A stretch of DNA of 64,000 nt from Elusimicrobiota bacterium (GTDB lineage Bacteria > Elusimicrobiota > UBA8919): positions 31,186 through 95,185 of the forward strand of contig JAQUMH010000001.1 in the NCBI GenBank assembly GCA_028718185.1, read 5' to 3'. Position numbers and translations under genes: made by a program. Positions 740 to 64,000 of the stretch are shown here, one piece after another; the stretch's first letter is position 1, and every line of letters starts with the position of its first letter. The notes beneath the pieces were generated by a model. That model was given only the letters and a program-made list of their open reading frames with translations. It made no database searches and was not told the DNA's origin.

Positions 740-879
740 CTTTCTGTTTAAATAGGGCTTTAAAATTTTTGCCCTTTATTACATTTATTAAAAACTATAT
801 TTTACGGATTAAACTTAACAAAAATATCTATATAAACATTAAATTCAAACTTTAATATCAAACATTAATACCGAACATT

Positions 880-1224
880 TTATCCCGGAGGCCAACTAAA
901 GTTTCTACCGCCTAATAAATGCCAGTGAATATGAAACACAGACTGTCCGGCGTCAGAATTGGTGTTTAACACCAACCTGTAACCCTTTTTATCTACACTA
1001 TTTTTTTTTGCAAGTTCTTTAACAAGAAAATGAACATCAGCAATAATACTGCTGTCTGTTTTAACAATATCATTTAAGGTTGGAATATGTTTTTTGGGAA
1101 TTACCAACACATGAAAAGGTGCTTGCTGATTAATATCTTGTATAGCAATTAAAGTATCTGTTTCAGCTATCACTTTTGCAGGAACTTTCTTTTCAATAAT
1201 ACTGCAAAACAAACAATCAGACAT
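880..1224 (-). CDS. HIT (histidine triad) family hydrolase
   Basis: 114 aa; HVLVIPKKHIPTL and C-terminal HIHWHLLGG histidine triad. Confidence 0.85.
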   Translation of the reverse strand: MSDCLFCSIIEKKVPAKVIAETDTLIAIQDINQQAPFHVLVIPKKHIPTLNDIVKTDSSIIADVHFLVKELAKKNSVDKKGYRLVLNTNSDAGQSVFHIHWHLLGGRNFSWPPG

Positions 1225-1269
1225 CTTATATTTATAAAGAATTTTCCCTGTTTTGTCAAGTACTTTATT

Positions 1270-3123
1270 TCATTTTATGAAATATGTCATTTCTTTCTGA
1301 ACTTTTAACAATCGATCTACCTGACTATTTAATAATTTACTATTCAGTACTTCCTTATAATTTTCATCATACATTTTAATTCTTGGTATATTATATGATT
1401 CCAGCGGTATTACTATTGAAAGGGATTTATTTATAACCGCCATTTCATCCCATGTCGTGGTAACGATATATTCCCTTTCTTTGTTTTCCAAAAGAGAGAA
1501 CCCCTGACTATAGTCGTTTGATGAATTTTTACAGCCTAAAAACGAGAACATTGTAGAAACTACATCTAAATGACTTGTCAGTTTTTTATATATCTGCGGT
1601 TTATGGTTTGGAATATACAAAACAAACGGGACTTTGACCTGTTCTTCGCAAAAACCCTGATTATGACCATAAAAACCTTTTTCAAAAAATGCCTCGCCAT
1701 GATCGCCGGAAATAATTACAATAGTGTTTTTTAGAATATTTTTTTTCTCCAATTCACTTAAAATTTTACCTATGAGATAATCATCGTAGTAAATGGCATT
1801 TTTATATCTATTGAAAACCGGTAATATATTATCTTTATTAAGTGTGATATAATTAAATGTTTCAGCGGCAGGTTTAAATTTATGGAAGTTTGAAGGTGAT
1901 TCATAACTGCCATGCGGACAATCAAAAAAAATAAATGAAAAGAAAGGAGTTTTGGATTCTTTTTTACTTATATACTCTATTAAATCATTTGCTATTATTG
2001 CATCTTTTTCTGATTTGTCTTCTGATTTAGGTTTATCCATTATTTTTTCCGGAGGTATTTCAACAAAACATGTCTTCGTAAATTCAGGGAAAGTTAGTTC
2101 AGTAGCAGCAAGTATCTTAAAATCATAATTTAACTTAATCAAGGAATCAACAAAAACCGGTGATTGTCTTTCCCCCAGTATAGAATTCCAATAATATCCG
2201 TCAATACCATAAAACAATGAAAACACGCCAAATCTTGTACAATTACCCCCACTATAATGATCCTTAAAAACCAAAGATTTTCTGCTAAATTCATAGATAT
2301 TAGGAGTTATGTCTTTGTTTAACATATCATATCTGAAAGAATCGATTAAAATCCATATAATATTAGGTAAATTCTGCTGGTTTTTGTAAAATTCTATCTT
2401 TTTTTTTGGATAAATAAGTCCGGAATGTTCTTTATCCAATTGAAAGGAAACTGTTTCGTCTATTTTTAAATTAAAATATTTTTGAGCTAATTTCTTAATT
2501 GTAAGAGGTTGATATAAAGGGAATAATTTCATATGCCTGGTTATATAAGGGTTGTTTTTCAAGTCGGCATATGCATAAATCCCTTTATCCGCAACTATAA
2601 CCGACAGAACGCAAATAACTGCCAAATAAATATTATTTTTTCTTAAAATATATTTTTTTTCTACTAAAGATTTAGCAAGATAATTATACAAAAATATCTC
2701 AAGCAGGAATAAAGATATAATGATAAAAACAAAAAACAGCTTTGTCGCCAAGTTAAAATCCAACGATTCCCACCCGCCTTTCGTAAATAAAGTATTTATT
2801 ACAAATCCATTTATATGAAATCTAAAAATCCTGTAAATCCCGACGTCTATAAAGAACAATAGATTAACCGTAAAAAACATAAATATAAATATAATTTTGG
2901 GTAATCGCATAAAATAAAATACCGACAAAAGCAATAACAACAAAATATAAACCAAAAAAATATTTGAGAGATATGCGATAATTGTATATATTATCTCCGC
3001 AGGATTATTACCGACAAATTTAAAATACGGGAGACCAATAAGCAAAGTTAATATAAGATTAAAAAATACAAAGATAATGATTTTTAAATATTTTTTATTT
3101 TCCATAATGGTATATAATTTCAT
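1270..3123 (-). CDS. Membrane protein with C-terminal sulfatase / alkaline-phosphatase-superfamily domain (YejM / LTA-synthase-like)
   Basis: N-terminal multi-helix hydrophobic region; DSFRYDMLN and ISGDHGEAF motifs typical of sulfatase-type metal sites. Confidence 0.6.
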   Translation of the reverse strand: MKLYTIMENKKYLKIIIFVFFNLILTLLIGLPYFKFVGNNPAEIIYTIIAYLSNIFLVYILLLLLLSVFYFMRLPKIIFIFMFFTVNLLFFIDVGIYRIFRFHINGFVINTLFTKGGWESLDFNLATKLFFVFIIISLFLLEIFLYNYLAKSLVEKKYILRKNNIYLAVICVLSVIVADKGIYAYADLKNNPYITRHMKLFPLYQPLTIKKLAQKYFNLKIDETVSFQLDKEHSGLIYPKKKIEFYKNQQNLPNIIWILIDSFRYDMLNKDITPNIYEFSRKSLVFKDHYSGGNCTRFGVFSLFYGIDGYYWNSILGERQSPVFVDSLIKLNYDFKILAATELTFPEFTKTCFVEIPPEKIMDKPKSEDKSEKDAIIANDLIEYISKKESKTPFFSFIFFDCPHGSYESPSNFHKFKPAAETFNYITLNKDNILPVFNRYKNAIYYDDYLIGKILSELEKKNILKNTIVIISGDHGEAFFEKGFYGHNQGFCEEQVKVPFVLYIPNHKPQIYKKLTSHLDVVSTMFSFLGCKNSSNDYSQGFSLLENKEREYIVTTTWDEMAVINKSLSIVIPLESYNIPRIKMYDENYKEVLNSKLLNSQVDRLLKVQKEMTYFIK

Positions 3124-4360
3124 TTTCAGGATATTTTTTAGGAAGCTTTAAATAAATATAATTAGATGTATACCCGTAACCATTTGTCTCGGTTAAAACT
3201 TCCATTTTTTTACCCATAAACTTTTTAGAAAAATCATGCCGGAGCTGCAAATCCAACATCCGCAGCTTTGTTTGCCATTTCTTCACTAGCGATGAGTTTT
3301 CTCTTATCATTTTAAAATTGACAGGATTTATCAACTCTGCTTCTGTCCCAGGTCTTCTGGAAAACTTAAAGATATGCAACCGCGAGAACTTGCACTTTTT
3401 TATGAAGTTATATGTATTGTCAAACGTCTCTTCCGTATCTGTCGGATATCCGACAATAATGTCTGTTGTAATTCCAATATCTGTAATCTTTTTTCTTATT
3501 TTACTGACTTTTTTTAAAAATTCCTTAGTTAAATAAGGTCTTTTCATGTCTATTAATATTTTATCATCACCAGACTGGAGCGGAATATGTAAATGATGAC
3601 AAAGTTTTTTTGACTCAGCCATATGTTCTATCAAATCATCGGTAATGTCGTTTAATTCAATCGAAGAAAGCCTTATACGATAAAGTCCTTCTGTTTTTTC
3701 TAATTCTTTTATTAAACCGGTTATATTAACCTTTAACTTATTCTCAATAAATTCATATTTTCCAAGCCGTATGCCGCATAGAACAACCTCCTTGTGTCCG
3801 GCTGAAACATAACATCCCACTTCTCTAACAACATCATCATAACTTTTTGAAGATAATGTCGGTCTGACTTTCGGCACAACACAATAAGCGCATTTACCGT
3901 TACAACCATCCTGAACTTTCACAAAAGCCCTGGTGCGATTGTGAAAAACTTCAGCCGCTATATCAATATTGTTTATTTTATTATAATTAGCATCTATTAT
4001 ATTTAAAATGTTTTCTTTGTTTGAATTTTTAAACAGTTTTACCTTGGGAAACTCATTTCTTAAACTACTCTCCGCTCTTTCAACATAACATCCCGTGAGA
4101 AATATTTTTGCTTTAGTATTTATTCTTAAACATTTTCTTAAATATTGCTTTGTTTTATGATCTGCATTAGAAGTTACTGTACAAGAATTAATAATAATAA
4201 TATCGGCGTCTTCAGGTCCCGTAAAAACACACCCTGCTCTTGAAACTTCAGCCTGCATTTTTGAAGTTTCACACTGATTTACTTTACAACCAAAAGTATA
4301 GAAATGTATTTTCATTATATCAGCTATATTATATAATAAGAAGGTGATTTTAGAGGACAA
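3095..4360 (-). CDS. mtaB: MiaB-family radical SAM tRNA methylthiotransferase (MtaB-like)
   Basis: N-terminal MTTase Cys triad (FGCKVNQCE...NSCTVT...GCYV) plus radical SAM CNGKCAYC; sits downstream of dnaJ-rsmE as yqeV does in Bacillus subtilis. Confidence 0.8.
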   Translation of the reverse strand: MSSKITFLLYNIADIMKIHFYTFGCKVNQCETSKMQAEVSRAGCVFTGPEDADIIIINSCTVTSNADHKTKQYLRKCLRINTKAKIFLTGCYVERAESSLRNEFPKVKLFKNSNKENILNIIDANYNKINNIDIAAEVFHNRTRAFVKVQDGCNGKCAYCVVPKVRPTLSSKSYDDVVREVGCYVSAGHKEVVLCGIRLGKYEFIENKLKVNITGLIKELEKTEGLYRIRLSSIELNDITDDLIEHMAESKKLCHHLHIPLQSGDDKILIDMKRPYLTKEFLKKVSKIRKKITDIGITTDIIVGYPTDTEETFDNTYNFIKKCKFSRLHIFKFSRRPGTEAELINPVNFKMIRENSSLVKKWQTKLRMLDLQLRHDFSKKFMGKKMEVLTETNGYGYTSNYIYLKLPKKYPENEIIYHYGK

Positions 4361-5267: not shown

Positions 5268-6410
5268 CTATTTGTTAAATATCTTTTTAAAAAAACTTTC
5301 GTCTATTTTTTCGCCGGATATCTGAGCATATTCTTTCAAAAGCTCTTTTTGGCGGGTAGTAAGATTCTCCGGCGGCACTATAAAAACTTTTACATATTCA
5401 TCTCCAACCCGTGAAGAATTAACTGATGGCATCCCTTTTTCTTTAAGACGAAACACTTTATTGGAAGGTGTCCCTGAAGGAATTTTCATCGAAACATTTC
5501 CGTAAAGCGTCGGAACTATTATTTCACCGCCTAATGCTGCCGTGGAAAAACCTATCGGTACATCAACATAAATATCATCTTTTTCTCTTCGAAATATTTT
5601 ATGTTGCAAAACTCTGACAACTATATATAAATCCCCGGAAGGTCCGCCTTTTTCACCCGCTTCTCCTTGTCCTTTAGCTCTTATTGTATTTCCGGTATCT
5701 ACACCTGCAGGAATTTTTACAGTTATTTTAGATTGTTTTTTGACTTTTCCCCTGCCTGAGCATTCAGAACAAGGTGTACCGACTATTTCACCGCTTCCTC
5801 CGCATTTTGAACATGTCTGTTGAAGCGAAAAAAAACCACGCGAATATCTGACAACACCGCTACCTTTACAAGTAGAGCACGTTTTTTTTGATGTTCCTTT
5901 TTTTGCACCGCTACCCCGGCAAATGGAACATACCTGCGTATGATAAATATCAATTGCCTTTTCACTACTTTTGAACGCTTCTTCTAATGTAATTGTCAGG
6001 TGGTATTCTAAATCTGCCCCCTTTGTAGATAGTGTCCTGTGACTTTGACCGGAAAATCCTCCACCACCAAAAATATCAAAAATGTCACCAAAAACCTCAC
6101 CAAACCCTCCATTCTGAAAAATATCTTCAAAACCGGAAAAATCGGCATTTTTGAAAATATCTTCAGATGTATATCTCCCGTCAATGCCAGCATGACCATA
6201 TTGATCATACAACTTTCTTTTCTCAGTATCAGACAAAACAGCATAAGCCTCAGAAATTTCCTTAAATCTTTCTTCTGCTTCTTTCTTTTTGTCAGCGGTA
6301 ACCCTGTCAGGGTGAAATTGTAAAGCAAGATTTCTATAGGCTTTTTTTATTTCATCTGCAGTTGCATTCTTTTGAACACCAAGAATTTCATAATAATCAC
6401 GTTTTGTCAT
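5268..6410 (-). CDS. dnaJ: Chaperone DnaJ
   Basis: J domain (DYYEILGV...HPD), Gly-rich linker, four CxxCxG zinc-finger repeats. Confidence 0.95.
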
Positions 6411-13994: not shown

Positions 13995-14165
13995 TAATAG
14001 GATAAAAAAATCCCCGCGAATGCCGTGTGAACAAAATGTTTGAAGCACTACTTACTAAGTGGGTATCCTGTTCAAGTAACCAAAATTACAAGAAACGCAG
14101 ATTCCCAAAATTGTGCTTGTAAGCTCAAAACAGTCTATTCAACACCAACACCGCAGGGAAATTAT
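13995..14165 (-). ncRNA. ssrS: Candidate structured small RNA, possibly 6S RNA (SsrS)
   Basis: 247-bp non-coding gap immediately downstream of zapA; minus-strand 5' CCCUGCGG (about 14150) can pair with CGCGGGG (about 14015) followed by a U-run, enclosing about 140 nt; E. coli places ssrS between zapA and the 5-formyl-THF cyclo-ligase gene. Not verified by covariance model. Confidence 0.25.
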
Positions 14166-17700: not shown

Positions 17701-17890
17701 GATTTAACCTGTCAATTGCTTCCATTAACCGCTCAATCAAAACAGAATTGAAATAATCATCTCTTTCAGGTCTCGTGCCATCAACAGCAATATCCGGACC
17801 ATAAAGTGTCTTATATCCCAATTCTTTTAATATGTCCAATGATAACTGTTCAATTTCCGATTCGGTGATTATGTGTGGCATATTTTTCAA
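14789..17890 (-). CDS. hsdR: Type I restriction enzyme R subunit (HsdR)
   Basis: 1033 aa; N-terminal nuclease region, SF2 helicase motifs (TQGSGKS, DEAH-like [10 protein letters not shown]). Confidence 0.95.
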
Positions 17891-17893
17891 TGT

Positions 17894-20290: not shown

Positions 20291-20297
20291 ATTGTAT

Positions 20298-20990: not shown

Positions 20991-20992
20991 TG

Positions 20993-28480: not shown

Positions 28481-29651
28481 AAAATTCAGCCGGTCTCTTG
28501 CTCCTCAATCCAAAATAAAACTCAATATATTCAACAGTTCTTAAAGCAGCAAACCCATCACCATACGGATTTACACTTTTGGCAATTTTTTCATAATATT
28601 TTTTATTAATAATAAGCTTTGAAACTTCATTAAATATTTTATGTTCATCAGGTCCTACAATCTTTACGGTACCCGATTTAACTGCTTCAGGTCTTTCTGT
28701 CACATATCTTGTTACAAGTACGGGCTTACCCAAAGCAGGCGCTTCCTCCTGTAACCCCCCTGAATCCGTTAAAACCAGATATGATATCCTTAAAAGATTT
28801 GTAAAATCAAGATAGTTGAGCGGTTCAATAAGGTATACATTTTTTATCTTATTTAATAACTTATAAACCACTGCTTTTATATTCGGATTAGGATGTACAG
28901 GATAAATAATACTATAAGTAGGAAATCTATACGAAATCCGTTTTATTGCTTTACAAATATTTTCAATGGGTTTACCGAAATTCTCACGGCGATGTGCGGT
29001 AACTAGTATTAGTTTAGAGTTTAAAGTTGAGAGTTGAGAATTAAACAATTCTTTTAATATTTGATTTTGAAATTTATGCTTCTTTTTCAAAATCATATAT
29101 AGCGCATCTATAACCGTATTTCCGGTTATAAAAATATTTTTTGTATTTATGTTTTCTTTAACAAGTGCTCTTTTAGCAGTTAAAGTAGGACAGAAATGTA
29201 TATCACAGACTGCATCTGTTAACCGGCGATTAACCTCTTCCGGATAAGGGTTGAATTTATCATACGAACGAAGACCTGATTCAACATGCCCGATAGGAAT
29301 TTTTCTATAAAAAGAAGATATCGTGGATGCAAAAGTAGTTGTTGTATCACCATGAACAAGAATTAAATCCGGTTTTTCTGATATAAGAATTGGTTCTAAA
29401 CGGTTAAGCACAGTAGAAGTTATATGAAAAAGCGTTTGATTATCTGTCATTATATTCAAGTCATAATCAGGTTCTATTTCAAATGTTCTTAAAATATCGT
29501 CTAAAAGATACCTGTGCTGGGCAGTCACACATACCTTAACTTTAAATCTTTTAGAATTGGCTTTCAGCTGTTTTACAACAGGTGCCATTTTTACGGCTTC
29601 AGGTCTTGTTCCGAATATACACAATATTTTTTTCATAATATTAACACTCAC
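28458..29651 (-). CDS. wecB: UDP-N-acetylglucosamine 2-epimerase (non-hydrolysing)
   Basis: IFGTRPEAVKMAPV...LVHGDTTTT...HVESGLRS...AHRREN motifs. Confidence 0.9.
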   Translation of the reverse strand: MSVNIMKKILCIFGTRPEAVKMAPVVKQLKANSKRFKVKVCVTAQHRYLLDDILRTFEIEPDYDLNIMTDNQTLFHITSTVLNRLEPILISEKPDLILVHGDTTTTFASTISSFYRKIPIGHVESGLRSYDKFNPYPEEVNRRLTDAVCDIHFCPTLTAKRALVKENINTKNIFITGNTVIDALYMILKKKHKFQNQILKELFNSQLSTLNSKLILVTAHRRENFGKPIENICKAIKRISYRFPTYSIIYPVHPNPNIKAVVYKLLNKIKNVYLIEPLNYLDFTNLLRISYLVLTDSGGLQEEAPALGKPVLVTRYVTERPEAVKSGTVKIVGPDEHKIFNEVSKLIINKKYYEKIAKSVNPYGDGFAALRTVEYIEFYFGLRSKRPAEFYVRTKKI

Positions 29652-30532: not shown

Positions 30533-30645
30533 AAAACAGCTCTCTCTTTGCTTGAAAATACGAACTTATTACTAATATTAGCGTGATATTCGCGATATTT
30601 CTATTATTCGCATTTATTCGCGCGTATTAGCTTAAAAATAGGATA

Positions 30646-38655: not shown

Positions 38656-38747
38656 GATAAATTCAGTGATTAAGCAATTAAGTGATTAAGCGTTTAAGTA
38701 AAAACTAAACTACTTATCTGCTTATCTGCTTTTTATCCCCGCCTCCT

Positions 38748-38945
38748 TTATAGATAAGGTAGAATAGTCCTTATCATTTTCGTATCCGTCTTATTAAGTA
38801 CACCAGATTTCCTTAAACTACGCATTTTGCTGGATGATTTATCTGTCAGAAGATGACGGGCAAATGCTTTTTTCCTTTTAATCTTTCCGGTCGATGAAAT
38901 AAAAAATCTTTTTTTTGCGCCACTATGTGATTTTAACTTTGGCAT
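38748..38945 (-). CDS. rpmI: 50S ribosomal protein L35
   Basis: MPKLKSHSGAKKRF... typical L35, 65 aa. Confidence 0.9.
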   Translation of the reverse strand: MPKLKSHSGAKKRFFISSTGKIKRKKAFARHLLTDKSSSKMRSLRKSGVLNKTDTKMIRTILPYL

Positions 38946-44168: not shown

Positions 44169-44238
44169 ATAAATACCACGGAACCGACACGGAACTAATA
44201 CACGGAACTTTTAGCGTTCTTTTCCGCATCCTACTGTT

Positions 44239-45707
<1,469 letters not shown>

Positions 45708-45812
45708 TTATACCTTATGATGATTTTTTAACACCTATTACATTGATTAAAACATATCCCTATTAACTAAAATCTGTGTAATCTATTTTTTAATCTGCGT
45801 AATCAGACACTC

Positions 45813-46655: not shown

Positions 46656-46791
46656 AATAAAAAATTACTTCTGCTGTCATTGCGAGAGCCAATTTATTGG
46701 CTCGTGGCAATCCTGTCTTAGACGGACTACATTTTACGAGATTGCTTCGCTAACGCTCGCAATGACAAATTACGAGATTTTTCAATATACA

Positions 46792-48291: not shown

Positions 48292-48309
48292 TTTCTAACT
48301 TTCTCCTTC

Positions 48310-48450
48310 TATTCATCGCGGAGCGAAGGAGTTGTTGAGCAGAACTTCACGGAGTCCCGCTTAAAACATTCAGCGGGACGAGTGAGAGTGCCCCGACGTA
48401 ACGTCGGGGACAACGGTTCTGCGAAACAAGCTTCCGAACGCATATTACTT
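48310..48450 (-). repeat. Intercistronic hairpin repeat element, copy A1 (atpH-atpA spacer)
   Basis: Shares about 110 bp with copy A2 (GAGTTGTTGAGCAGAACTTCACGGAGT.CCGCTTAAAACATTCAGCGG.ACGAGTGAGAGTGCC...GGTTCTGCGAAACAA); two internal hairpins; 3' terminus overlaps last codons of atpH. Confidence 0.65.
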
Positions 48451-48984: not shown

Positions 48985-49514
48985 CGCTGCTCAGAATAGG
49001 CGGATATATCATTTAAAAACTTATCAATAAGCTGCTTTTGAGTACCTTTATCAATAGTCTTCTCCATAATTTTTTCAGCAATAGAAATAGCAATTGGAAC
49101 TATCTCCCGCCTTAAGTCATCTTTAACCAAATCTCTTTCCTGTTCAATTTGTTTTTTTGCTATCTCAAGAATTTTCTTTGCTTCCTCTCTAGCTTCAGTT
49201 ATTATCTTTTGCTTATTTTCCTCACCGGAAAGAGTTGCTTTTTGAAGAAATTCCTGTGCCTTTTTATCAATATCTGCTACCATCTGTTCATACTCAACTT
49301 TTAATTTATCTGTTTGCAATTTCAAACTTTCAGCATCTGAAATGCTTTTGGCAATATCACTTTTTCTCTTTGATAAAACATCAACAAGTGATTTCCATGC
49401 TATTTTCCATAAAACAAAAACAGCAATCAAAAACGTTATAACCTGCACCAGAATAATTTTAAAATCAATATCTAACATAAAAATTCGCGAATAAAACATC
49501 ACGAATATTATCAC
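48981..49514 (-). CDS. atpF: ATP synthase Fo subunit b
   Basis: N-terminal TM helix followed by long charged helix; operon position. Confidence 0.8.
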   Translation of the reverse strand: MIIFVMFYSRIFMLDIDFKIILVQVITFLIAVFVLWKIAWKSLVDVLSKRKSDIAKSISDAESLKLQTDKLKVEYEQMVADIDKKAQEFLQKATLSGEENKQKIITEAREEAKKILEIAKKQIEQERDLVKDDLRREIVPIAISIAEKIMEKTIDKGTQKQLIDKFLNDISAYSEQR

Positions 49515-49594
49515 AAATGTTCACGAATAAACCAACGTCGTTATTCGTGTATTGTTCGTGATGTGTGCCTTTATTCGTGTGCTTCTATTCGTGA

Positions 49595-49960
49595 CTACTG
49601 TACGAAGTACTTAGTAAACGGATTCGCAAATAAAAGTATTATACTTATAAAAAGCACGTATAAAACCAACGATTCAATAAATGCAAGACCTATAATCATT
49701 ACTAATTGCAATTGCCCGCCTGCTTCAGGTTGCCTCGCTATTCCTTCCAATGCTTTTTTGATTGCAACCGACTGCATACTTGCGCCGACAGCAGCAACAA
49801 CTACAAGACCCATTGCCGCTACAACAACTGATGTCTTAAAAAAATCAGCCGCCCCCTGATTTAATACAACCGCTACCTTATCTTCAGCAAAAACAACGCT
49901 ACTCAATAACATAAGAACACAAGAACACAAGAACATAATAACACAAGAACGCCTTTTCAT
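49595..49960 (-). CDS. atpE: ATP synthase Fo subunit c (with unusually long N-terminal extension as drawn)
   Basis: GIARQPEA loop and two TM helices; first about 35 residues are hydrophobic and encoded by ACAAGAAC tandem repeats, true start uncertain. Confidence 0.8.
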   Translation of the reverse strand: MKRRSCVIMFLCSCVLMLLSSVVFAEDKVAVVLNQGAADFFKTSVVVAAMGLVVVAAVGASMQSVAIKKALEGIARQPEAGGQLQLVMIIGLAFIESLVLYVLFISIILLFANPFTKYFVQ

Positions 49961-51192: not shown

Positions 51193-51250
51193 TAAAAACC
51201 ACGAAACCGACACGGAACAAAACACAGAACTGACACGAAAAGTTTAATGT

Positions 51251-52234
51251 TTACCTTATGAGACGACAGAGGTCTCCACGAGACGGTTTTGAACCGCTTA
51301 AAACCTTTGCAGTAGAACCATTGTCGCCAAAATAATCAGCAACCGCTACTTCACCGACTTTTTCTTCTGTTTTACCGATTACCATCCCGGTATCAGGACT
51401 TCTAATCTCTTTTCCCTGGTGATAGACTACTAATTTTGTTCCTATTTTCAGATTAGATTCTTGTCCTGCATCAAGATAGATATTATTTTCATCAACTTCG
51501 GCAACTCTGCATGACCAGGGGCGAGCATTAACCTGAAAAACTATGTTGTCAACAAATTTTGCAATAGCTGCTCTCAACGCCTCACCTTCAAGCGTTTCAT
51601 CATAACCACCTTTTGTCCCCATTCCTAAAAACGAGCCTTTGGAAGATTTTGCTACACCCTTACCCGAATCAATATAAATTATTCTTCCGGTTTCTACTTC
51701 AATTACTCTTATATCAACAGTACATTCTGCAACCTGTTGCTTTGATTGGGTAATAAGATAATCCGAACCTCCGGTTTTAACCCCGAATTGTGAAATAGAA
51801 CCAACAACAATAGCATCAAGTCCTAAAATTTTTCCCATCTGGACAGCGGTGTTTGCATCAGTCATACCTGTTGTCTGAAGTTTTTGTTCTTCCATAACCT
51901 TATCTAATTTTGACCTTTCAATTAGAATAAACTTTTTTGACTTGCCAAGTTCAGTCAGAAGAACATCAGAAGCTGCAGTTCCAAGTCGCCTTTGACCATA
52001 TGCGGTTTTGTTTTCAAACTCAACAACTGATATCTTCTTCTTAGGTGGAATAAATTCATCTTTTGGTTTCTCAATAGTTATCGCCTCTTTTTTCCTCACC
52101 GATGTTGACGGTGCACAAGATGTTAGAAACAAGAGACAAGAGACTAGAGGCAAGAGACAAGATGCAAGATGCAAGATGCAAGAAGACTTTGCCCGCTGAC
52201 TACTGTGTGCTGAATACTGAATGCTGACTTTCAT
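51251..52234 (-). CDS. CsgG-family lipoprotein
   Basis: ISVVEFENKTAYG...LLTELGKSKKFILIERSKLDKVMEEQ resembles CsgG/curli-transport-component-like lipoproteins; N-terminus encoded by tandem repeats. Confidence 0.55.
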   Translation of the reverse strand: MKVSIQYSAHSSQRAKSSCILHLASCLLPLVSCLLFLTSCAPSTSVRKKEAITIEKPKDEFIPPKKKISVVEFENKTAYGQRRLGTAASDVLLTELGKSKKFILIERSKLDKVMEEQKLQTTGMTDANTAVQMGKILGLDAIVVGSISQFGVKTGGSDYLITQSKQQVAECTVDIRVIEVETGRIIYIDSGKGVAKSSKGSFLGMGTKGGYDETLEGEALRAAIAKFVDNIVFQVNARPWSCRVAEVDENNIYLDAGQESNLKIGTKLVVYHQGKEIRSPDTGMVIGKTEEKVGEVAVADYFGDNGSTAKVLSGSKPSRGDLCRLIR

Positions 52235-52236
52235 AC

Positions 52237-52899
52237 CTACCTCCCTGGAAGCGTCTGAATAGAAATGTTTACTACTCCATTCGCTTCTTCTTTTAAAGGA
52301 GAACGCAACGCCTTATCAACTGTTTTCTCAATAAGCTGTGAAGCGAATGCTTTCCCTATATCTTTAAATTCAAATTTTTTATTCGATATCTTTCTTTCAT
52401 CTTCCCATAATAACTGTTCTTTCTTTACATCAAACAACTTGAAATTGGCTTGAACAGTTCTTGCATAATAAAAACCAAGCGTTGTATACTTAAATTCAAT
52501 AACATCGCCATAAACAAGCCCGTCAACATTTAGTTTTTCGCCAAGCTCTTTTATTGTCGCTGTAGGCAACTGTCCTGCGTCGGTAATCCCTAATTCCCTA
52601 AGTTCTGAATCTATTATTTCAAACGATATAGTGTCATAACCACGATTTATTAATCTCTTATTAAAAAGGTATCTTAATAAAACCGGTGCATCTAAATCTA
52701 TTGATTGGTTAGAAAACGGCAATACTGCAACTTTTGCAGGAGGCACATAATTTTCAATTAAATATTTAGCCTTAGGCGCACAACCCCAAAAACCAGCAGA
52801 CAGCACACAAAATACAGCAAACAGTAGTAAAACCCACTTCTGAATCCTGAATTCTGAGTGCTGAATTCTGAGTACTGAATCATCAATTCTGACTTCCAC
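52237..52899 (-). CDS. Lipoprotein (hypothetical, partner of CsgG-like gene)
   Basis: Signal peptide with lipobox FWGC; VAVLPFSNQS segment; first about 20 codons derive from CTGAATTCTGAGT-type repeats. Confidence 0.45.
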   Translation of the reverse strand: MEVRIDDSVLRIQHSEFRIQKWVLLLFAVFCVLSAGFWGCAPKAKYLIENYVPPAKVAVLPFSNQSIDLDAPVLLRYLFNKRLINRGYDTISFEIIDSELRELGITDAGQLPTATIKELGEKLNVDGLVYGDVIEFKYTTLGFYYARTVQANFKLFDVKKEQLLWEDERKISNKKFEFKDIGKAFASQLIEKTVDKALRSPLKEEANGVVNISIQTLPGR

Positions 52900-53376: not shown

Positions 53377-53394
53377 AAACCCCCCATCGCATAG

Positions 53395-53507
53395 CGAGGG
53401 AGTTGTTGAGCAGAACTTCACGGAGTTCCGCTTAAAACATTCAGCGGAACGAGTGAGAGTGCCAGCACAGGCTGGACACGGTTCTGCGAAACAATCTCCC
53501 GAGCGAT
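53395..53507 (-). repeat. Intercistronic hairpin repeat element, copy A2 (ilvB-ilvH spacer)
   Basis: Near-identical to A1 with compensatory changes in both hairpins; ends immediately after ilvB stop codon. Confidence 0.65.
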
Positions 53508-53509
53508 TT

Positions 53510-55237: not shown

Positions 55238-55357
55238 AATTTAATTCTCCTATAACATTAAATATAAAGTTATTGGGTTATAGCGTTATAGAGTTATAGG
55301 GTTTTAGTGTCATAGGATTGCAACTCTACAAACTCTATAACACTATAAACTCTAAAA

Positions 55358-57010
55358 CTACTTCAATATTGCACCCAAATCTGCAGAAGTTACCAGCTTG
55401 GCGTATCTTGAAAGCCAACCGGTTTTTACTTTTGATTCAAAAGGTTTTCTCCTTGCTAAACGAAGTTTTACTTCTACATCAGTAAGACGGACATTTATCG
55501 TTCTATTCGGTATATCTATTGTAATTTCTTCTCCATCTTTTATAATTCCAATAGGACCGCCATCTACTGCTTCCGGTGCAATATGACCTATACACGGACC
55601 GCGAGTCCCGCCAGAAAATCTACCATCAGTAATTAAAGCAACTGACTCTGAAAGTCCCATGCCGACAATTGCTGAAGTCGGAGAAAGCATTTCTCTCATA
55701 CCAGGCCCGCCTTTGGGTCCCTCATTCCTGATGACTATTACTTCTCCTTTCTTAATTCTTTTAAGCGTAATTAAATTCATAGCCGATTCTTCGGACTCAC
55801 AAACCCTTGCTTTTCCTGAAAATTTTAACATTTTTGAACTAACAGCTGATTGTTTTACAACACAACCATTAGGAGCGATATTACCAAAAAGTATTGCTAT
55901 ACCTCCGGTTTGGCTGTAAGGTTTGTTCAAAGGTCTAATAACTTTGTCATCGCCAACTTTTCCAATTTTGGAAATTTCCGAAATTCTTTTCCCGGATATA
56001 GTCGGATTATCTTTTAATTTACCCTTTAAGACAGAAATAACTGCCGGAATTCCACCGGCATTATCAAGGTCTTCCATGTAATAATCTCCTGCCGGTTCAA
56101 GTTTGACTATATTTGGCGTCTTTTTAGATATTTCATCAAAAAGTGAAAGCGGAAGTTTTATATTACACTCATTTGCTATTGCAGGAAGATGCAAAACTGT
56201 ATTAGTTGAACCGCCTAATGCCATATCCATAACTATTGCATTATAAAATGCTTCGCTTGTCATTATTCTTTTTGGTAAAATTTGCTTATTAACAATTTCA
56301 ACAATCCTCTGACCTGATTCGTATGCAATCCGTCTCTTTTTACTTGATACAGCAGGAGCGGTAGCACATCCGGGAAGAGACATTCCCATAGTTTCCGTTA
56401 AACATGCCATTGTATTTGCAGTATAAAGTCCCTGACAACTTCCTGAACCGGGACATGCAGCCATTTCGAGTTCTTCAAGTTCAGTTGCATCCATCTTCTT
56501 TGCACGGAAAAGTCCGACCGCTTCAAATGAATCTCTAACAAGTGAACGCCTCTTGCCATTGTAAAAACCGGTCAACATTGGACCTGCAGTAACTACTATT
56601 GAAGGAATATTCAAACGTCCCGCTGCCATAAGCATTCCGGGCGTGATTTTATCACAATTAGTCAGCAAAATTAAACCGTCAAGCTTATGAGCATTTGCTA
56701 CTGATTCAACACAATCAGATATAAGTTCTCTTGAGGGCAATGAATAACACATTCCCGAGTGTCCCATAGCAATTCCATCGCATATAGCAGGAACACCGAA
56801 AATAAAAGGTGTACCGCCGGCGGATTCTACTCCCCGTTCTATAAATCTTTCTAAATCTCTCATTCCAAAATGACCCGGAACCAGATCGGAGTAACTTGAA
56901 GCTATTCCGATAAATGGCTTCTGTACCGACGCTTTAGAAATTCCTGTTGCATAAATAAGACACCTGTTTGGAGCTCTTTCAACACCTTTCTTCGCATCAT
57001 CGCTTCTCAT
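55358..57010 (-). CDS. ilvD: Dihydroxy-acid dehydratase
   Basis: IlvD/EDD family signatures (CDGIAMGH, Fe-S Cys ligands). Confidence 0.95.
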
Positions 57011-57077
57011 TTCCTTCCTCCATTCACTTCGCTTACACGCAAATATTCGCGTGTATTCACGCTCTTTATATTTGCGT

Positions 57078-59899: not shown

Positions 59900-59933
59900 G
59901 TTCACGTGTTCACGTGTTGATATGTTCACGTGT
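59900..59933 (-). promoter_or_regulatory. Three tandem TTCACGTG units upstream of lysC
   Basis: TTCACGTG at 59901-59908, 59909-59916 and 59925-59932, 20-50 nt upstream of the lysC start codon; each contains the CACGTG palindrome. Confidence 0.35.
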
Positions 59934-60009
59934 AAATTGCTAATAGAAAGTTAAAAATTTTATTAAGACTTTTAAAGAGCATATAATCCTTACAAATCAA
60001 AGCGAAGTA

Positions 60010-60100
60010 AGAAATTTCTGAAGAGCCTGAATTTGCGACTTATTTTTTCCAGGAGCAAATGTTAGAGCGACCACAAGGGAGCGTCTCAAAGAAATTTACT
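60010..60100 (-). repeat. Intercistronic repeat element, copy B1 (thrB-lysC spacer)
   Basis: About 85 bp nearly identical to B2 (GAAATTTCTGAAGAGCCTGAATTTGCGACTTATTTTTTCCAGGAGCAAATGTTAGAGCGACCACAAGGGAGCGTCTC); terminus overlaps thrB stop. Confidence 0.65.
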
Positions 60101-61015
60101 TACGAGCACACCTTTATTATCAAAATCACAAACGATATATTTTGACTTAATTCTATGTCCTGCAAACGCTCTTTGCATTGATTTCCCGATGCCAACTGAT
60201 AGACGCTGACTACTGAGCGATAATATAGTAGAACCACTACCGGAAATACAAACACCGTAAGCACCTGATTTTTTGGCAGAACTGAAAACTTCTTCCATTC
60301 CCGGAATTAGTTTTTTTCTATACGGCTGATGTAGTCTGTCTTCCATAGCTGTCCCTAGTAGATTATATTTTTTTTGAATGATTGCCGATAAAAAAAATCC
60401 GACTCTGCTTGAATTAAAAACTGCATCTTCACGACTTATCATTTTTGGTAAAATTTTTCTTGCCTTATCTGTTGAAACTTCAAAATCAGGAATACAAAGA
60501 ACTGCCTTTAAATCACCTGGCATTTTTATCTTTGTACATTTTATATCTTTTCCATTATAATTGCAAACACAAAGTCCGCCAAAAAGCGAAGGAACTACAT
60601 TATCGGGATGCCCTTCAAGTTTCGTGACCATCTGTATAATTTCATTATCTGAAAGTTTACTACCGCAAATTTTATTTGCTGCAATAAATCCGCCAAGTCG
60701 TGCGGCAGCCGAACTTCCCAATCCCCGTGCAAGAGGAATATGATTAATAAACCGTATATGTAATGTGTTATGTGTAATATGTAATATATCGAAAACCTTT
60801 TTCATCGCCTGCCAAACAATATTTTTTTCATCTCTTGGAAGTTTCTCTTCCCCTTCACCTTCAATATCTATTTTTAGACCTCGGACATTGGACTTCGGAC
60901 ATTGGACGATATTTACTTCTATCTCATTATAAAGTTTTAATGCAGCCCCGAGCACATCATATCCGGCACCAAAATTTGATGTCGTAGCCGGAATTTTAAT
61001 TTTTATTTTGTTCAT
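60086..61015 (-). CDS. thrB: Homoserine kinase
   Basis: GHMP kinase motif [11 protein letters not shown]. Confidence 0.85.
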
Positions 61016-62142
61016 AAACCTATTGTTTTTACAATTTTTTTCAAATCCGGCTCCATAATTTTAGGCTTTATTGCAGATTTTATCGCTCTATCCGGATCTT
61101 TAAGTCCATGTCCCGTAAGAGTGCAAACGATTGTAGTTTGTAGTTTTTGGTTTGCAGTTCGTGAACCCATAAACGCATGAACTCGTGAACGATATTTTAT
61201 AAGCCCGGCTACCGATGCAGCAGATGCCGGCTCTACAAAAACTCCTTCAAGAGATGCAAGTAACTTGTATGCTTTTAGAATTTCAGTATCTGTAACTATA
61301 TCAATAACTCCCTTTGATTCATCCCTCGCTTCTTCTGCTTTCTTCCAACTAGCAGGATTTCCTATTTTTATTGCAGTCGCTATCGTTTTAGGATTTTTTA
61401 TTGGTTTTCCTTTAACAATCGGTGCAGCACCCGCTGCCTGAAAACCCATCATGTGAGGCAGTTTATTAGTTAATAGTTCATTGTTCATAGTTTTTTGATT
61501 TTTCTCTGAACTCTGAACCCTGAACTCTGAACTGTATTCCTTATATCCCTTCCAATATGCTGTTATATTTCCTGCATTGCCAACTGGGATAAAATGGTAA
61601 TTAGGCGCTTTACCTAAAAAATCAATTATCTCAAAAGCAGCAGTCTTTTGTCCCTCAATACGATAAGGATTTAATGAATTTACAAGCGTGATGGGATATT
61701 TTTCTGTAATTTCGAGAACTATTTTTAACGCATCATCAAAATTGCCTTTTAACGCAATAACCTTTGCTCCATGCATCATCGATTGTGAAAGTTTACCGAG
61801 CGCAATAGAACCGTCCGGTATTATAACAACACATTTCAATCCTGCTCTTGCCGAATATGCAGCAGCAGATGCAGCAGTATTACCTGTTGATGCACAAATC
61901 ACCGCTTTGCTACCCTCTTCAACAGCTTTAGAAATAGCCATCGTCATTCCACGGTCCTTAAATGAACCGGTTGGATTTGTACCTTCAAACTTAAGATATA
62001 TATCAACGTTTATATTAAGATATTTTTCTAAATTTTTTGCTCTCAAAAGCGGCGTATTGCCTTCGTAAAGAGTGACAACAGGCATCTTGTCCATTACCGG
62101 CAAATATTTTCGATACCTTTCAATTATACCTTTATAAACCAT
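61012..62142 (-). CDS. thrC: Threonine synthase
   Basis: PLP-dependent fold with [14 protein letters not shown] lysine motif. Confidence 0.9.
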
Positions 62143-62157
62143 ATATAAACCTTAAAG

Positions 62158-62240
62158 CGTTCATGTGTTCACGTGTTGATGTGTTCAAATATTAATCATA
62201 AATGCGTTCACGTGTTCACATGTTCATATGTTCAAATGTT
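62158..62240 (-). promoter_or_regulatory. Array of about 8 degenerate TTCAYRTG units upstream of thrC
   Basis: GTTCATGTG, TTCACGTG, GTTGATGTG, TTCAAAT, GTTCACGTG, TTCACATG, TTCATATG, TTCAAATG in tandem beginning 16 nt upstream of thrC start. Confidence 0.35.
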
Positions 62241-62317
62241 AATCGCAAAACAAGTTACATATTTTATCTTCTCTTCATCGCGAAGCGAGAAACAAACCTT
62301 ATCCACGCTTAATCGCG

Positions 62318-62425
62318 AAGCGAGGAAGAAATTTCTGAAGAGCCTGAATTTGCGACTTATTTTTTCCAGGAGCAAATGTTAGAGCGACCACAAGGGAGCG
62401 TCTCGAAGAAATTTGCTCCCGAGCG
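62318..62425 (-). repeat. Intercistronic repeat element, copy B2 (hom-thrC spacer)
   Basis: Near-identical to B1; abuts hom stop codon; preceded at 62277-62295 by an extra partial copy of the CATCGCGAAGCGAG terminus. Confidence 0.65.
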
Positions 62426-63724
62426 TTATTCCATGATACGCAACACAACTGCTTTAGTTTTAACAAAAGATAAATTATTAATTATTTTTATCGCTTTCCT
62501 GATATTTCCTTCTTTTGCCTGATGTGTAAGCATTACTATAGGAACACCGTATTTTTTATGACACTCTTCCTGAAGACAAGCAGAAATAGAAACATTATTA
62601 TCCCCTAATATTCCGAAAATTTTTGAAAGCGCCCCGGGTTTATCTGCTGTCATAACTCTTATATAATATTTAGTCTCAATATTTTCAACCGGCTTTATAT
62701 TCAGTTTTACTTTTTTATCATACGAAATATATGGTGATTTCCCTGCTATACCATAAAAAATATTTCTTGCGAGATATATTATATCAGAAACAACAGCACT
62801 CGCAGCAGCAGAACCACCGGCACCTTTTCCATAAAACATCACATCACCTACAAAGTCACCATCGACATAAATTGCATTATATTCATTTTCCACTGATGCA
62901 AGAGGATGCTCATCAGAAATAAAAGTCGGATAAACAGTCGCAGAAATTTCATTATTTTCATTTTTCACAGTTGCTAAAAGCTTTAGAACATAGTTAAACT
63001 CTTCCTTGGCATATTTTATATCTATAGAATTTATATCAGAAATGCCTTCCCTGTAAATTTTTTCAAACGGCAAATGATTTCCATATGCTATTGATGCAAG
63101 TATTGAAAGTTTATGCGCTGCATCAGAACCGTCAATATCAAGAGAAGGATTTGATTCTGCAAAACCGGATTTTTGCGCTAATTTAACTGCTTCATCAAAA
63201 CTCATATTATCATCTGTCATTTTTGAAAGAATAAAATTAGTTGTACCATTCAAAATACCAATTATTGACTGTATTTTATTTGCAGCCAGCCCTTCATTTA
63301 ACGACTGAATTATCGGTATCCCTGCACCTACAGCTGCTTCGAAATATACAAGAACCTTTTTCCTCAGAGCAAGCGAAAATATCTCGTCCCAGTTACTCGA
63401 AAGTACCGCTTTATTGGCAGTAACAATATGTTTCCCACGATTCATTGCCTCTATAATTATTTTTTTCGAAACATCCATGCCGCCTATCAACTCAACAATA
63501 ATATCAACTGACGGGTCAAGAATAATCTTACTTGCATCTGAAGTGAAAGTTTCCCTGGGTAAATTTGATTGTTTAAACCGCGAAGTATCTTTATCGCAAA
63601 CCCATTTTATATTTATCTCGCAACCAACTTTCCTATTTACAATAGATGAATGCTTTAATAATATTTTTATAACATTTAGCCCTACGGTACCACATCCAAC
63701 AATTCCAATATTAATTTTTCTCAT
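62426..63724 (-). CDS. hom: Homoserine dehydrogenase
   Basis: N-terminal NAD-binding GCGTVG, catalytic domain, C-terminal ACT domain. Confidence 0.9.
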   Translation of the reverse strand: MRKINIGIVGCGTVGLNVIKILLKHSSIVNRKVGCEINIKWVCDKDTSRFKQSNLPRETFTSDASKIILDPSVDIIVELIGGMDVSKKIIIEAMNRGKHIVTANKAVLSSNWDEIFSLALRKKVLVYFEAAVGAGIPIIQSLNEGLAANKIQSIIGILNGTTNFILSKMTDDNMSFDEAVKLAQKSGFAESNPSLDIDGSDAAHKLSILASIAYGNHLPFEKIYREGISDINSIDIKYAKEEFNYVLKLLATVKNENNEISATVYPTFISDEHPLASVENEYNAIYVDGDFVGDVMFYGKGAGGSAAASAVVSDIIYLARNIFYGIAGKSPYISYDKKVKLNIKPVENIETKYYIRVMTADKPGALSKIFGILGDNNVSISACLQEECHKKYGVPIVMLTHQAKEGNIRKAIKIINNLSFVKTKAVVLRIME

Positions 63725-63780
63725 AACGCTGATTTCCTGTACGCTGATTACCGCTGATAATCTGCGGTCATATGTGACAT

Positions 63781-64000
63781 TTATCTGCCAGTATCTGCGT
63801 TTTTTATAAACTTTCCCAATCTTAACAAGGCATCGTGAAATCTGTTAAAATGAGTAACTAACGCAAACCGTAAATAACCTTCCCCATATTTTCCAAAACC
63901 GGTTCCCGGAGAGCAAGCAATACCTGTTTTTTTTATTAGTTCTTCAGAAAATTTCAACGAATCCATTTTTTGAGATTCAGGAATCTTTGCCCATAGATAC
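63781..64000 (-). CDS. PLP-dependent aminotransferase, C-terminal fragment (5' end outside window)
   Basis: C-terminal GIACSPGTGFG...GYLRFAL pattern typical of class I aminotransferases; open to window edge. Confidence 0.5.
   Translation of the reverse strand, partial: YLWAKIPESQKMDSLKFSEELIKKTGIACSPGTGFGKYGEGYLRFALVTHFNRFHDALLRLGKFIKNADTGR

Follow-up and report, generated by a model that had tools for sequence, protein, structure and literature searches.

Inverted heptamer and octamer arrays in operon spacers, signal peptides and enzyme loops of an Elusimicrobia bacterium

Results

Gene Order and Array Positions

The window analysed here is a 64-kb stretch with ~33% G+C from a groundwater metagenome-assembled genome (MAG) of Elusimicrobia, in which tandem arrays of short words lie between genes, in front of start codons and within coding sequences. 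All long open reading frames (ORFs) of the window are on the minus strand, so that the 5′ ends of the genes have the high coordinates, and the GC skew of the plus strand is uniformly negative. Assigned with Pfam and read from high to low coordinates, the genes are hom, thrC, thrB, ask, leuA/cimA, ilvD, ilvB and ilvH, followed by lp1 and lp2 (a GNA1162-like and a CsgG-like lipoprotein), by atpZ, an atpI-like gene, atpB, atpE, atpF, atpH, atpA, atpG, atpD and atpC, and by ribosomal, tRNA-synthetase and chaperone genes with a type I restriction-modification island. In a homologue search the window ThrC was 100% identical to a protein encoded on a 970-kb contig of an NCBI 'Elusimicrobia bacterium' MAG, and its nearest homologues were all from Elusimicrobia MAGs. 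The loci used for comparison lie around thrC (L001–L004) and around atpB and lp2 (L005–L038). No strain near-identical to the window was found (none above ~83% protein identity), and strain-level inference uses L016, L017, L018 and L012.

A preliminary description of this DNA had reported locus-specific tandem words of 7–13 nt at the 5′ ends of many genes. With Tandem Repeats Finder (TRF) and by direct reading, its words were recovered at every locus that it named. The arrays between genes are the following:

834..879, minus strand: array of period 13, AAACATTAAAATC x3.5, ~95 nt upstream of rpsU, an outlier in period (TRF and sequence)
30560..30640, minus strand: CGCGAATA-type words in the truB-ribF spacer (sequence)
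38660..38731, minus strand: paired arrays CAGATAAG x2.4 and CTTAATCA x4 between rpmI and rplT, hairpin z = −2.4 (TRF, folding)
44175..44208, minus strand: GTTCCGTG(T) x3 directly upstream of the atpC start, with the same array type upstream of atpZ (family D9)
45770..45812, minus strand: GATTACRCAGATT x2 in the atpG-atpD spacer (sequence)
49479..49594, minus strand: CACGAAYA x4 then TATTCGYG x4, making up the entire atpE-atpF spacer, hairpin of −37 kcal/mol, z = −4.0 (sequence, folding)
51196..51250, minus strand: GTTCYGTG-type array filling the lp2-atpZ spacer, which is empty in some relatives (sequence, comparison)
55263..55360, minus strand: AGAGTTTAT-type array then CTATAACN array in the ilvD-ilvB spacer, z = −4.35 (TRF, folding)
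57020..57077, minus strand: CGCGAATA and GCGTGAATA words upstream of ilvD (sequence)
59900..59933, minus strand: ACGTGAAC x4, 19 nt upstream of the ask start (TRF, family D1)
62153..62244, minus strand: two arrays of TGAACAYR x4, immediately upstream of the thrC start (TRF, sequence)
63725..63800, minus strand: words GCAGAT and ATCAGCG, immediately upstream of the hom start (sequence)

The Unit Is a Heptamer or an Octamer

Arrays with a period of 6–16 and at least 2.9 copies numbered 21 in the window, compared to 2.4 ± 1.7 (maximum 9) in 40 dinucleotide shuffles. When codon-block shuffles were used as reference, the excess was limited to period 7 (7 versus 0.15) and period 8 (4 versus 0.05), and no excess was seen for periods 6 and 9–15. 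Pooling the window with its relatives (204 kb) gave 43 arrays of period 7 with at least 2.5 copies versus 0.3 expected, and 12 of period 8 versus 0.2 expected. In the same 204 kb the copy number has a local peak at 4.0–4.4 units, and almost no array exceeds 4.5. The unit is a heptamer or octamer, and the typical array has ~4 units in ~30 nt. The longer words of the preliminary description turned out to be double units or imperfect copies.

The arrays are unevenly distributed. Of the 21 window arrays, 14 are within 38–64 kb, inside the thr, ilv and atp operons, and the promoter-type spacers of the first 38 kb are without arrays. Placement within a few nt 5′ of the start codon was found for thrC, ask, hom, atpC, atpZ, atpF and rplT, in line with the described location at 5′ gene ends, but arrays also lie deep inside thrC and thrB. 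No word of the window contains a G-tract, which rules out a G-quadruplex (G4) explanation there; GGGAAGT x4 occurs only in the relatives L005 and L007.

Dozens of words are present and none dominates genome-wide. The words had been taken to be different at each locus, but TGAACACG, (A)TTCAGA and CGCGAATA-like words each recur at three places, and GTTCCGTG recurs at two. Between non-adjacent loci of the same genome, 16.7% of word pairs match within one mismatch (any rotation, either strand), compared to 5.5% between genomes and 2.8% for letter-shuffled words. Since matches within genomes exceed those between genomes, the words are not locus-specific and are either spread or preferred within genomes.

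The pattern is common to at least nine related MAGs from independent assemblies, and all Elusimicrobia relatives have an array density of 3–12 per 10 kb. The sequence through the arrays is the same in contigs obtained from different samples and by different assemblers (L008, L019, L020 and L021; L006 and L022; L011 and L013). The recurrence of the same arrays across independent MAGs and assemblies shows that they are not an assembly artefact. In more distant relatives (lp2 60–66% identical) the lp2 signal peptide is still array-bearing. On L033, a distant contig with 55% G+C, positions 1610–1700 hold an inverted hairpin pair, (CGCAGAGA)x3 and (TCTCTGCG)x3; this array region and the N-terminal part of ORF 278–1573 appear in long ORF calls as spurious peptides 'TAETQRAQR / PRPLRLCGE'. 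Inverted arrays of short units may thus be common outside Elusimicrobia as well.

Paired Arrays Form Hairpins with Fixed Polarity

A reverse-complement partner within 90 nt, matching at 16 or more of 21 positions, was found for 19 of the 77 arrays, while a complement-only control gave 3 of 77. With a match of 15 of 21 the numbers were 32 and 9. Our data demonstrate that the element is a run of ~4 units of a 7–8-nt word, often accompanied by a run of its reverse complement a few to ~40 nt downstream, and that such paired runs form a hairpin of 60–110 nt. Inverted arms of this type are seen in an element of L017 (TGTGCGATAGCGGG.. and ..CCCGCAATCGCACA), and the ilvD-ilvB spacer has 18-nt arms that are 94% complementary. 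Five regions of the window fold better than shuffles, with z values from −2.3 to −4.35: the rpmI-rplT, atpE-atpF and ilvD-ilvB spacers (−2.4, −4.0 and −4.35), the lp1 5′ end (−2.3) and loop 1 of ThrC (−3.3). Unpaired arrays of the window are those of the atpE N-terminus, of lp2, upstream of thrC and ask, and in thrB. An origin as transposon footprint, by repeated target-site duplication, was ruled out, as flanking arrays are inverted and not direct.

In all 28 hairpin regions examined, 15 of them intergenic, the 5′ arm on the coding strand is purine-rich. Comparing the folding of sense and antisense strands revealed no bias (16 of 28, p = 0.26). As both strands fold equally, there is no sign of selection specifically on the sense RNA.

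The region between rpmI and rplT (38656–38760, minus strand) also has a strong Shine-Dalgarno (SD)-like AAGGAGG immediately 3′ of the rpmI stop codon, at a distance of ~90 nt from the downstream ATG of rplT. Between the two lies the array hairpin, and its closing stem GAUAAA/UUUAUC, when folded, would place the SD sequence beside the start codon.

Whole Elements Are Exchanged between Close Relatives

The atpE-atpF spacer is 88–128 nt long in every genome, and its occupant differs in each: array hairpins with unrelated words, or one of two dispersed elements described below, family X (L005) and family Y (L011). The lp2-atpZ spacer is empty in four genomes (−3 to 7 nt) and filled in the others (35–102 nt).

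The spacer between atpZ and the atpI-like gene is only 28–32 nt long in the window and at seven loci (L006, L009, L011, L012, L014, L016, L017). Three relatives have insertions of 110–164 nt in it (L005 2331–2449, L007 4488–4654, L008 5577–5752), which consist of small G+C-rich hairpins such as GGCGGGTTTCAACCCGCC and CCCCCGACTTTAGTCGGGGG.

L016 and L017 are 99.8% identical over 6.8 kb and show three differences. The first is a clean insertion of a 105-nt hairpin between lp2 and atpZ, with AATG on both sides and arms TGTGCGATAGCGGGGTAGCGGGATAGTGCGATA and TATCATCACACAATCCCGCAATCGCACA. The inserted copy is absent from L016, and L017 has a second copy on the same contig, 2.3 kb away and 97% identical over 97 nt. 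The second difference is a completely different ilvB-ilvH spacer. The third is the hydrophobic core of the lp1 signal peptide, which has been replaced, in frame in both strains and with the same lipobox end. L012, a UBA MAG of the same strain group, has runs of N at 2968–3148 and 5381–5506, which coincide exactly with two spacers that differ between L016 and L017. Strain variants break assemblies, and N runs are therefore expected at the variable spacers of L012, where the hairpin cassettes evidently interrupted or scaffolded the assembly. Copy-number variation between strains had been raised in the preliminary description; among the few near-identical pairs no gain or loss of a 7- or 8-nt unit was seen, and whole cassettes changed instead.

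Arrays Encode Signal Peptides of lp1, lp2 and AtpE

Three arrays of the window are read as N-termini:

52838..52896, minus strand: lp1 array of heptamers, A[TC]TCAGA x8, which codes for the signal-peptide n-region and pairs with a downstream T-rich region, z = −2.3 (TRF, folding)
52115..52229, minus strand: lp2 arrays ATTCAGY x4 then TCTTGYN x10, encoding a 40-aa signal peptide up to the lipobox LTSC (TRF, sequence)
49904..49950, minus strand: AtpE octamer array TTCTTGTG x6, which codes for the hydrophobic core within the signal peptide MKRRSCVIMFLCSCVLMLLSSVVFA (TRF, sequence)

The mature lp1 and lp2 proteins are conserved from the lipobox Cys onward in eight relatives (..GC/APKAKY and ..GC/APSTTVKKK), and the 24–45 residues before this Cys are different in every genome. 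In most genomes these signal peptides consist of a purine-rich array (n-region) followed by a pyrimidine-rich array (hydrophobic core). Both lipoproteins of L006 are examples, with MRQRIEDRGQRT... from a GGACAGA array and then ...LFFLCSMLYALC..FTGC from a TCTATGC array. All versions have kept a hydrophobic core and the ending F/L-x-[GSA]-C, and all but one have a positive n-region; the window lp1 has a net n-region charge of 0, when read from its sole canonical start, GTG 52899. Over the repeat-encoded N-termini the net charge of the n-region is otherwise +1 to +6, and the best 12-aa window has a mean Kyte-Doolittle value of 1.8–3.1. An ATG or GTG with an SD sequence lies upstream of the arrays of lp1 and lp2, and no alternative in-frame start follows them. 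A role of the purine-rich arms as SD arrays was ruled out for the lipoproteins, where a separate SD sequence and start codon precede the arrays. In L011 and L012, lp2 has a plain signal peptide of 24 aa, and we therefore conclude that arrays expanded or replaced an ordinary signal peptide. The lp1 signal peptide of L016 contains an in-frame insertion of a G+C-rich double hairpin, similar to those found between atpZ and the atpI-like gene.

A signal-like extension of 25–34 aa is present on the AtpE of all relatives, including those that have no arrays, and an AGGAGG precedes the AtpE start codon ATG by 9 nt. In five genomes the hydrophobic core is made up by an octamer array, at a constant 25 aa, and this array is perfect in L010 (TGTGTTTA x5.6). 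Subunit c of the Aquifex aeolicus ATP synthase is reported to have a cleaved N-terminal signal peptide. From their sequences, the repeat-encoded N-termini of lp1, lp2 and AtpE are predicted to be genuine signal peptides.

For genes whose drawn N-termini run into repeats, the preliminary description had offered two alternatives: either the true starts lie downstream, or repeat expansion generates signal-peptide-like N-termini. Each fits a different subset of genes, so both are partly supported and neither spans the whole phenomenon. Repeat-built N-termini apply to lp1, lp2 and AtpE with their SD-backed upstream starts, and comparison with orthologues shows that relatives keep the frame open through different arrays in these three genes. 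Downstream starts apply to ilvH (Met16, MRHTISVLVENK), atpZ (ATG 51195) and atpF (ATG 49478). The arrays near atpZ and atpF are untranslated, and the drawn N-terminus of ilvH, which had been listed as repeat-encoded, has no word repeat but belongs to family Y, a dispersed intergenic element of ~140 nt.

Arrays inside ThrC, ThrB and WecB

Further arrays lie within coding sequences of enzymes:

61460..61533, minus strand: ThrC loop 1, (AGTTCAG)x4, A-run, (CTATGAA-like)x4, in-frame hairpin with z = −3.3 (sequence, folding)
61131..61195, minus strand: ThrC loop 2, GTTCAYGN x4 and AAACTAC x4, in frame, +8 aa relative to PDB 2zsj (sequence, structure alignment)
60877..60907, minus strand: ThrB array GTCCRAN x4.4, in frame; the same word is a perfect array in L001 (TRF, comparison)
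60756..60787, minus strand: ThrB array ATTACAY x4.6, in frame (TRF)
29011..29039, minus strand: heptamer array of CTCAACT type, x4.1, inside the wecB ORF (TRF)

Loop 1 follows the motif YWKGYKEY and adds 16 aa relative to the Aquifex ThrC structure, PDB 2zsj. In an AlphaFold model of moderate overall quality (mean predicted local distance difference test, pLDDT, 73) residues 210–225 are unstructured, with pLDDT <50. Among 25 orthologues that are otherwise 70–85% identical, the two loops vary from 0 to ~35 repeat-like residues, and some orthologues have no insert. The two ThrB arrays overwrite variable segments and change the length by at most 3 aa; at these two sites, each of four genomes has a word of its own.

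Several genomes have the same architecture of loop 1, namely 30 nt, an A-run and 30 nt. The array is perfect in L001, and arm 1 of the window has one mismatch. It is decayed in L039, whose ThrC is only 70% identical, with equal length and ~70% identity to the perfect word. In L002 both arms have changed together, to AGTGTAA and TTACACC. Since 7 cannot be divided by 3, the reading frame changes from one unit to the next. In the (AGTGTAA)x4 array of L002 the third unit is GTGACAA, exactly where an in-frame TAA would fall. This avoidance of a stop codon shows that the origin of the arrays is at the level of DNA and that selection acts on them afterwards as a filter. Sorting arrays into coding and non-coding by open frames and stop-free words was rejected as partly circular, and the single L002 example was kept.

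The thrC-thrB junction itself, where the two genes overlap in the window, is in relatives a hotspot for the insertion of restriction-modification genes (L001 11171–13302; L002 11125–16005 and 17066–19044; L003 11022–11985). The cargo is different per genome and includes N6_N4 methyltransferases and DpnII/BanI-like and NmeDI-like endonucleases.

Dispersed Elements X, Y and Z

Three further types of element accompany the arrays:

62300..62425, minus strand: family X, ~110 nt, with copies at 60006–60107 and 44237–44340 (sequence comparison)
53377..53509, minus strand: family Y, ~140 nt, covering the mis-drawn ilvH N-terminus, with a second copy at 48292–48444 (sequence comparison)
46656..46791, minus strand: family Z, palindromic, with termini GTCATTGCGAG...CTCGCAATGAC, in the atpA-atpG spacer (inverted-repeat search)

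Family X reads AAATTTCTTYGAGACGCTCCC...GTCGCAAAT...CAGAAATTTCTTCCTCGCTTCGCGATTAA, and two of its three window copies are 95% identical. It can form alternative, mutually exclusive hairpins, GGGAGC..GCTCCC and GGAGCAAAT..ATTTGCTCC. Its copy in the atpE-atpF spacer of L005 is at a locus different from those in the window, which argues that family X is mobile. The two window copies of family Y are 82% identical, and a further copy lies in the atpE-atpF spacer of L011. One of its internal hairpins has been swapped for a different, compensating one (CCCCGACG..CGTCGGGG versus CCAGC..GCTGG). Families X and Y have common termini, ATCGCTCGGGAG...CTCCCTCGCT..GCGAT. In L001 and many orthologues, ThrC loop 2 contains an in-frame version of family Z of ~30 nt (GTCATTGCGAG-N-CGAAGCAATCTCG), which encodes the recurring peptide KNVIAS..TKQSRLT.

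Other Features of the Window

A scan of the window against Rfam (gathering threshold and E≤1) returned only a 6S RNA and one chance snoRNA match; at both thresholds no known Rfam family covers the arrays, family X or family Y.

14007–14162, minus strand: 6S RNA gene (Rfam, 64 bits, above the gathering score)
14789–23729, minus strand: type I restriction-modification island with hsdR, DUF1828/1829, DUF6978, hsdS, an unannotated ORF, a YhcG-like nuclease and hsdM

The island lies between 6S RNA/rarA and pheT. The genes pheS (34921–35934) and pheT (23968–26358) are separated by ~8.5 kb.

Discussion

Comparison with Known Repeats

Beyond the preliminary description, our analysis establishes the restriction to periods 7 and 8, the inverted pairing, the arrays in enzyme loops, the recurrence of words, the replacement at strain level and the clade-wide occurrence. 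Several of these properties have counterparts in known systems.

Long simple sequence repeats (LSSRs, the 5–11-nt class) with 7-nt units are over-represented in some genomes, mostly near gene ends (Mrazek et al. 2007, as cited in PMC4679880 and PMC4692102), and slippage with a ~7-nt register of the polymerase was proposed for them (Mrazek et al., as cited in PMC4679880). The arrays described here share with them head-to-tail units beyond chance and the peak at 7 nt. The arrays differ in the additional enrichment of 8-nt units, the very diverse words, the limit of ~4 units, the many reverse-complement pairs, the many in-frame coding arrays and their occurrence in Elusimicrobia with low G+C and small genomes. 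Strain-level polymorphism in unit number was not seen here in the few pairs available.

The TAACTGA repeats of Beggiatoaceae, cyanobacteria and Bacteroidetes consist of 2–6 heptamers a few nt upstream of start codons, as do many of our arrays in position. They often lack a canonical ribosome binding site, a few copies overlap ORF ends, and their spread between lineages is unexplained (MacGregor 2015, PMC4679880). In contrast to the dozens of words here, one word is used genome-wide there; only one indirect repeat was seen there, while our arrays commonly form inverted pairs. The coding copies of TAACTGA are peripheral and belong to hypothetical proteins, whereas ours are found in ThrC, ThrB, AtpE and the signal peptides of lipoproteins. 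The GGGNATC heptamers of Xanthomonas and Nostoc are transcribed and lie between co-oriented ORFs, at most 50 bp from ORF ends (Rehm et al. 2015, PMC4692102). They have the same preference for four units (here a peak at 4.0–4.4 copies and a sharp drop above 4.5), but they form G-quadruplexes and occur less often than expected in coding sequence. As the words of the window are without G-tracts, G4 formation cannot explain their four-unit limit.

REPINs and REP-BIME elements (PMC3116915, PMC3333891) and miniature inverted-repeat transposable elements, or MITEs (PMC10969869), resemble our elements as intergenic two-arm hairpins of 60–110 nt in several copies, with presence or absence between strains, and the strict orientation is compatible with single-strand transposition. 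Unlike these, our elements have no arm sequence conserved genome-wide, their arms are internally tandem-repetitive, and copies occur in coding sequence. Of the features of a MITE, terminal inverted arms are present, and the L017 element has near-identical copies and an insertion polymorphism. Families X (three copies) and Y (two copies) are repeated in the window and found at other loci in relatives. Multi-copy behaviour was seen for few elements, most window arrays being judged within 64 kb only. The doublet hairpins expected of REPINs are found, but their arms differ from locus to locus and no conserved REP could be defined; no RAYT or insertion sequence (IS) partner lies within the 64-kb window. 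Rickettsia palindromic elements (RPEs) are found in frame in unrelated housekeeping genes at positions compatible with the fold (PMC10969869). The ThrC loop 1 palindrome is likewise in frame, at a site that the low pLDDT predicts to be structurally tolerant. However, RPEs are conserved families of ~100–150 bp with a conserved peptide, whereas the elements here have at most ~66 nt and variable words and peptides, are built from heptamer arrays, and also build signal peptides.

Cyanobacteria offer further parallels. Their STRR heptamers, reportedly described by Mazel in 1990, are said to be tandem heptamers of few word families in intergenic DNA. The small dispersed repeats attributed to Elhai (2008) are reportedly mobile repeats of <30 nt with hairpins and heptamer arrays, which replace sequence without a change in length. 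We know of no report that either type encodes signal peptides or enzyme loops.

Over-representation of heptamers, placement at start codons, a preference for four units, miniature hairpin elements and in-frame palindromic insertions are thus already published. Literature searches for Elusimicrobia with tandem repeats, and for heptamer repeats with signal peptides, returned nothing relevant. We did not find described the combination of many words with strictly polar inverted heptamer arrays and a limit of ~4 units without G4 potential, nor in-frame residence in essential enzymes, construction and replacement of signal peptides at strain level, or the occurrence in Elusimicrobia.

A Probable Fast-Changing Class of Miniature Elements

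On balance we lean towards the view that the arrays and hairpins belong to one genome-wide and clade-wide class of heptamer/octamer arrays and miniature hairpin elements, which turns over fast and is filtered by selection. The comparison of L016 and L017 shows that whole cassettes are gained, lost or exchanged within the time in which strains diverge, and that elements can reach several copies per genome like miniature non-autonomous mobile elements. The persistence of position and length while the word drifts or is replaced suggests that units within an array are repeatedly homogenised. The distribution of the arrays shows that selection removes harmful copies, and the survivors are those in operon spacers, 5′ leaders, signal-peptide segments and surface loops, in frame and stop-free when coding. 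In translated copies the purine arm followed by the pyrimidine arm gives, at the level of the sequence, a charged and then a hydrophobic stretch and hence a signal peptide; with their fixed polarity the arrays therefore serve readily as signal peptides. Candidates for how they are written or moved are replication slippage with a 7–8-nt register combined with template switching between the arms, or orientation-specific single-strand transposition, as in IS200/IS605 and REPIN systems (PMC3116915).

Several points weigh against this view. No transposase or other candidate enzyme was found within the 64-kb window, and the diversity of words is far above that of any classical MITE or REP family. 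A target-site duplication was seen in one case only, and its 4 nt (AATG) might instead be microhomology. Among the few pairs of near-identical strains, none showed a polymorphism in unit number, so that ongoing slippage is inferred. All genes point the same way, which makes the polarities of transcription and replication inseparable in the window. A selected RNA function, and not parasitism, could be the reason why some spacers are constantly occupied and keep their size. Finally, the window and L001 share words in thrC (36/37 nt, arm 1 plus flank) and thrB (29/31 nt) despite saturated 4-fold sites of thrC (37% identity). Such sharing fits poorly to neutral turnover and suggests constraint on the word, patch-wise recombination, or directed or repeated homogenisation.

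Alternative Explanations

The main rival is a selected function as cis-regulatory RNA. Intercistronic hairpins would stabilise or process the transcripts, repeats in 5′ leaders would bind proteins of the S1, Csp or CsrA type, and coding copies would be by-products; the sequence would drift freely while pairing and periodicity persist. The location of arrays 0–20 nt from start codons, often with no SD sequence between, would suit such a function, and the TAACTGA repeats provide a precedent (PMC4679880). The atpE-atpF spacer is always occupied at similar length, the folds are stable, paired arms at one site co-vary from genome to genome, and elements are concentrated in the highly expressed atp, ilv and thr operons and not in the promoter spacers of the first 38 kb. 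However, sense strands fold no better than antisense strands (16/28, p = 0.26), some spacers are empty in close relatives, and one spacer can carry unrelated elements (X, Y or arrays). In addition, the diversity of words disfavours one sequence-specific binding protein, and the identical architecture occurs in the coding sequence of ThrC and ThrB, where a regulatory role is implausible. Taken together, we consider RNA function to be a rather improbable general explanation.

In contingency loci made of simple sequence repeats, slippage changes the unit number and causes phase variation by frameshift, here of surface lipoproteins. Neither 7 nor 8 is divisible by 3, so that gain or loss of a single unit would cause a frameshift; lipoproteins are encoded by two of the affected genes, and phase-variable heptanucleotide loci exist in Haemophilus. 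But the arrays are short (~4 units) and mostly imperfect, they lie also in the essential genes atpE, thrC and thrB, unit numbers are identical in independent samples, and near-identical strains differ by replacement of cassettes and never by one unit. Phase variation is therefore very unlikely.

Equally doubtful is that mis-annotation explains all cases, with every true start downstream of plain 5′ untranslated spacers. This holds for ilvH, atpZ and atpF, whose mechanically drawn ORFs extend into upstream repeats. In lp1, lp2 and atpE, however, the mature domains need a signal peptide, the lipobox Cys directly follows the arrays, SD sequences precede the upstream starts, no in-frame start lies between the arrays and the hydrophobic core, and all relatives hold the frame open through different arrays; the arrays of ThrC and ThrB are even located mid-gene. 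An artefact of metagenome assemblers or sequencing at low-complexity sequence, to which the N runs of L012 exactly at two variable elements might point, can practically be dismissed, since the same arrays lie at orthologous positions across studies and assemblers, contigs from different samples are identical, and reading frames are intact through every coding array.

A more far-reaching version of the mobile-element view, which we regard as a tentative and rather unlikely possibility, is that a process of this clade that has not been described so far writes or transposes ~30-nt arrays of 7–8-nt words together with a complementary array in fixed orientation, and acts at lower density in other uncultivated bacteria. 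It might be single-strand transposition of hairpins defined by structure and not by sequence, or templated snap-back synthesis in the course of replication or repair.

Significance

Non-triplet repeats of 7 and 8 nt inside essential genes are generally assumed to be strongly counter-selected, and the window has them in such genes. The lipoproteins offer a concrete case of signal peptides that repeat cassettes both build and replace while strains diverge. What defines the hairpins as a class is their architecture (inverted arrays of heptamers with fixed polarity and ~4 units) and not their sequence, and repeat finders based on similarity would miss them. Practical effects are miscalled start codons, inflated hypothetical N-terminal extensions, broken metagenome assemblies and alignments of orthologues that seem hypervariable. 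If the polarity reflects a mechanism linked to single-stranded DNA or replication, these bacteria would provide a system for studying how hairpin DNA is generated and spread in uncultivated bacteria. Should a dedicated process write or transpose the arrays, it would repeatedly create and replace signal peptides and surface loops, and would thus be a built-in generator of N-terminal and loop diversity.

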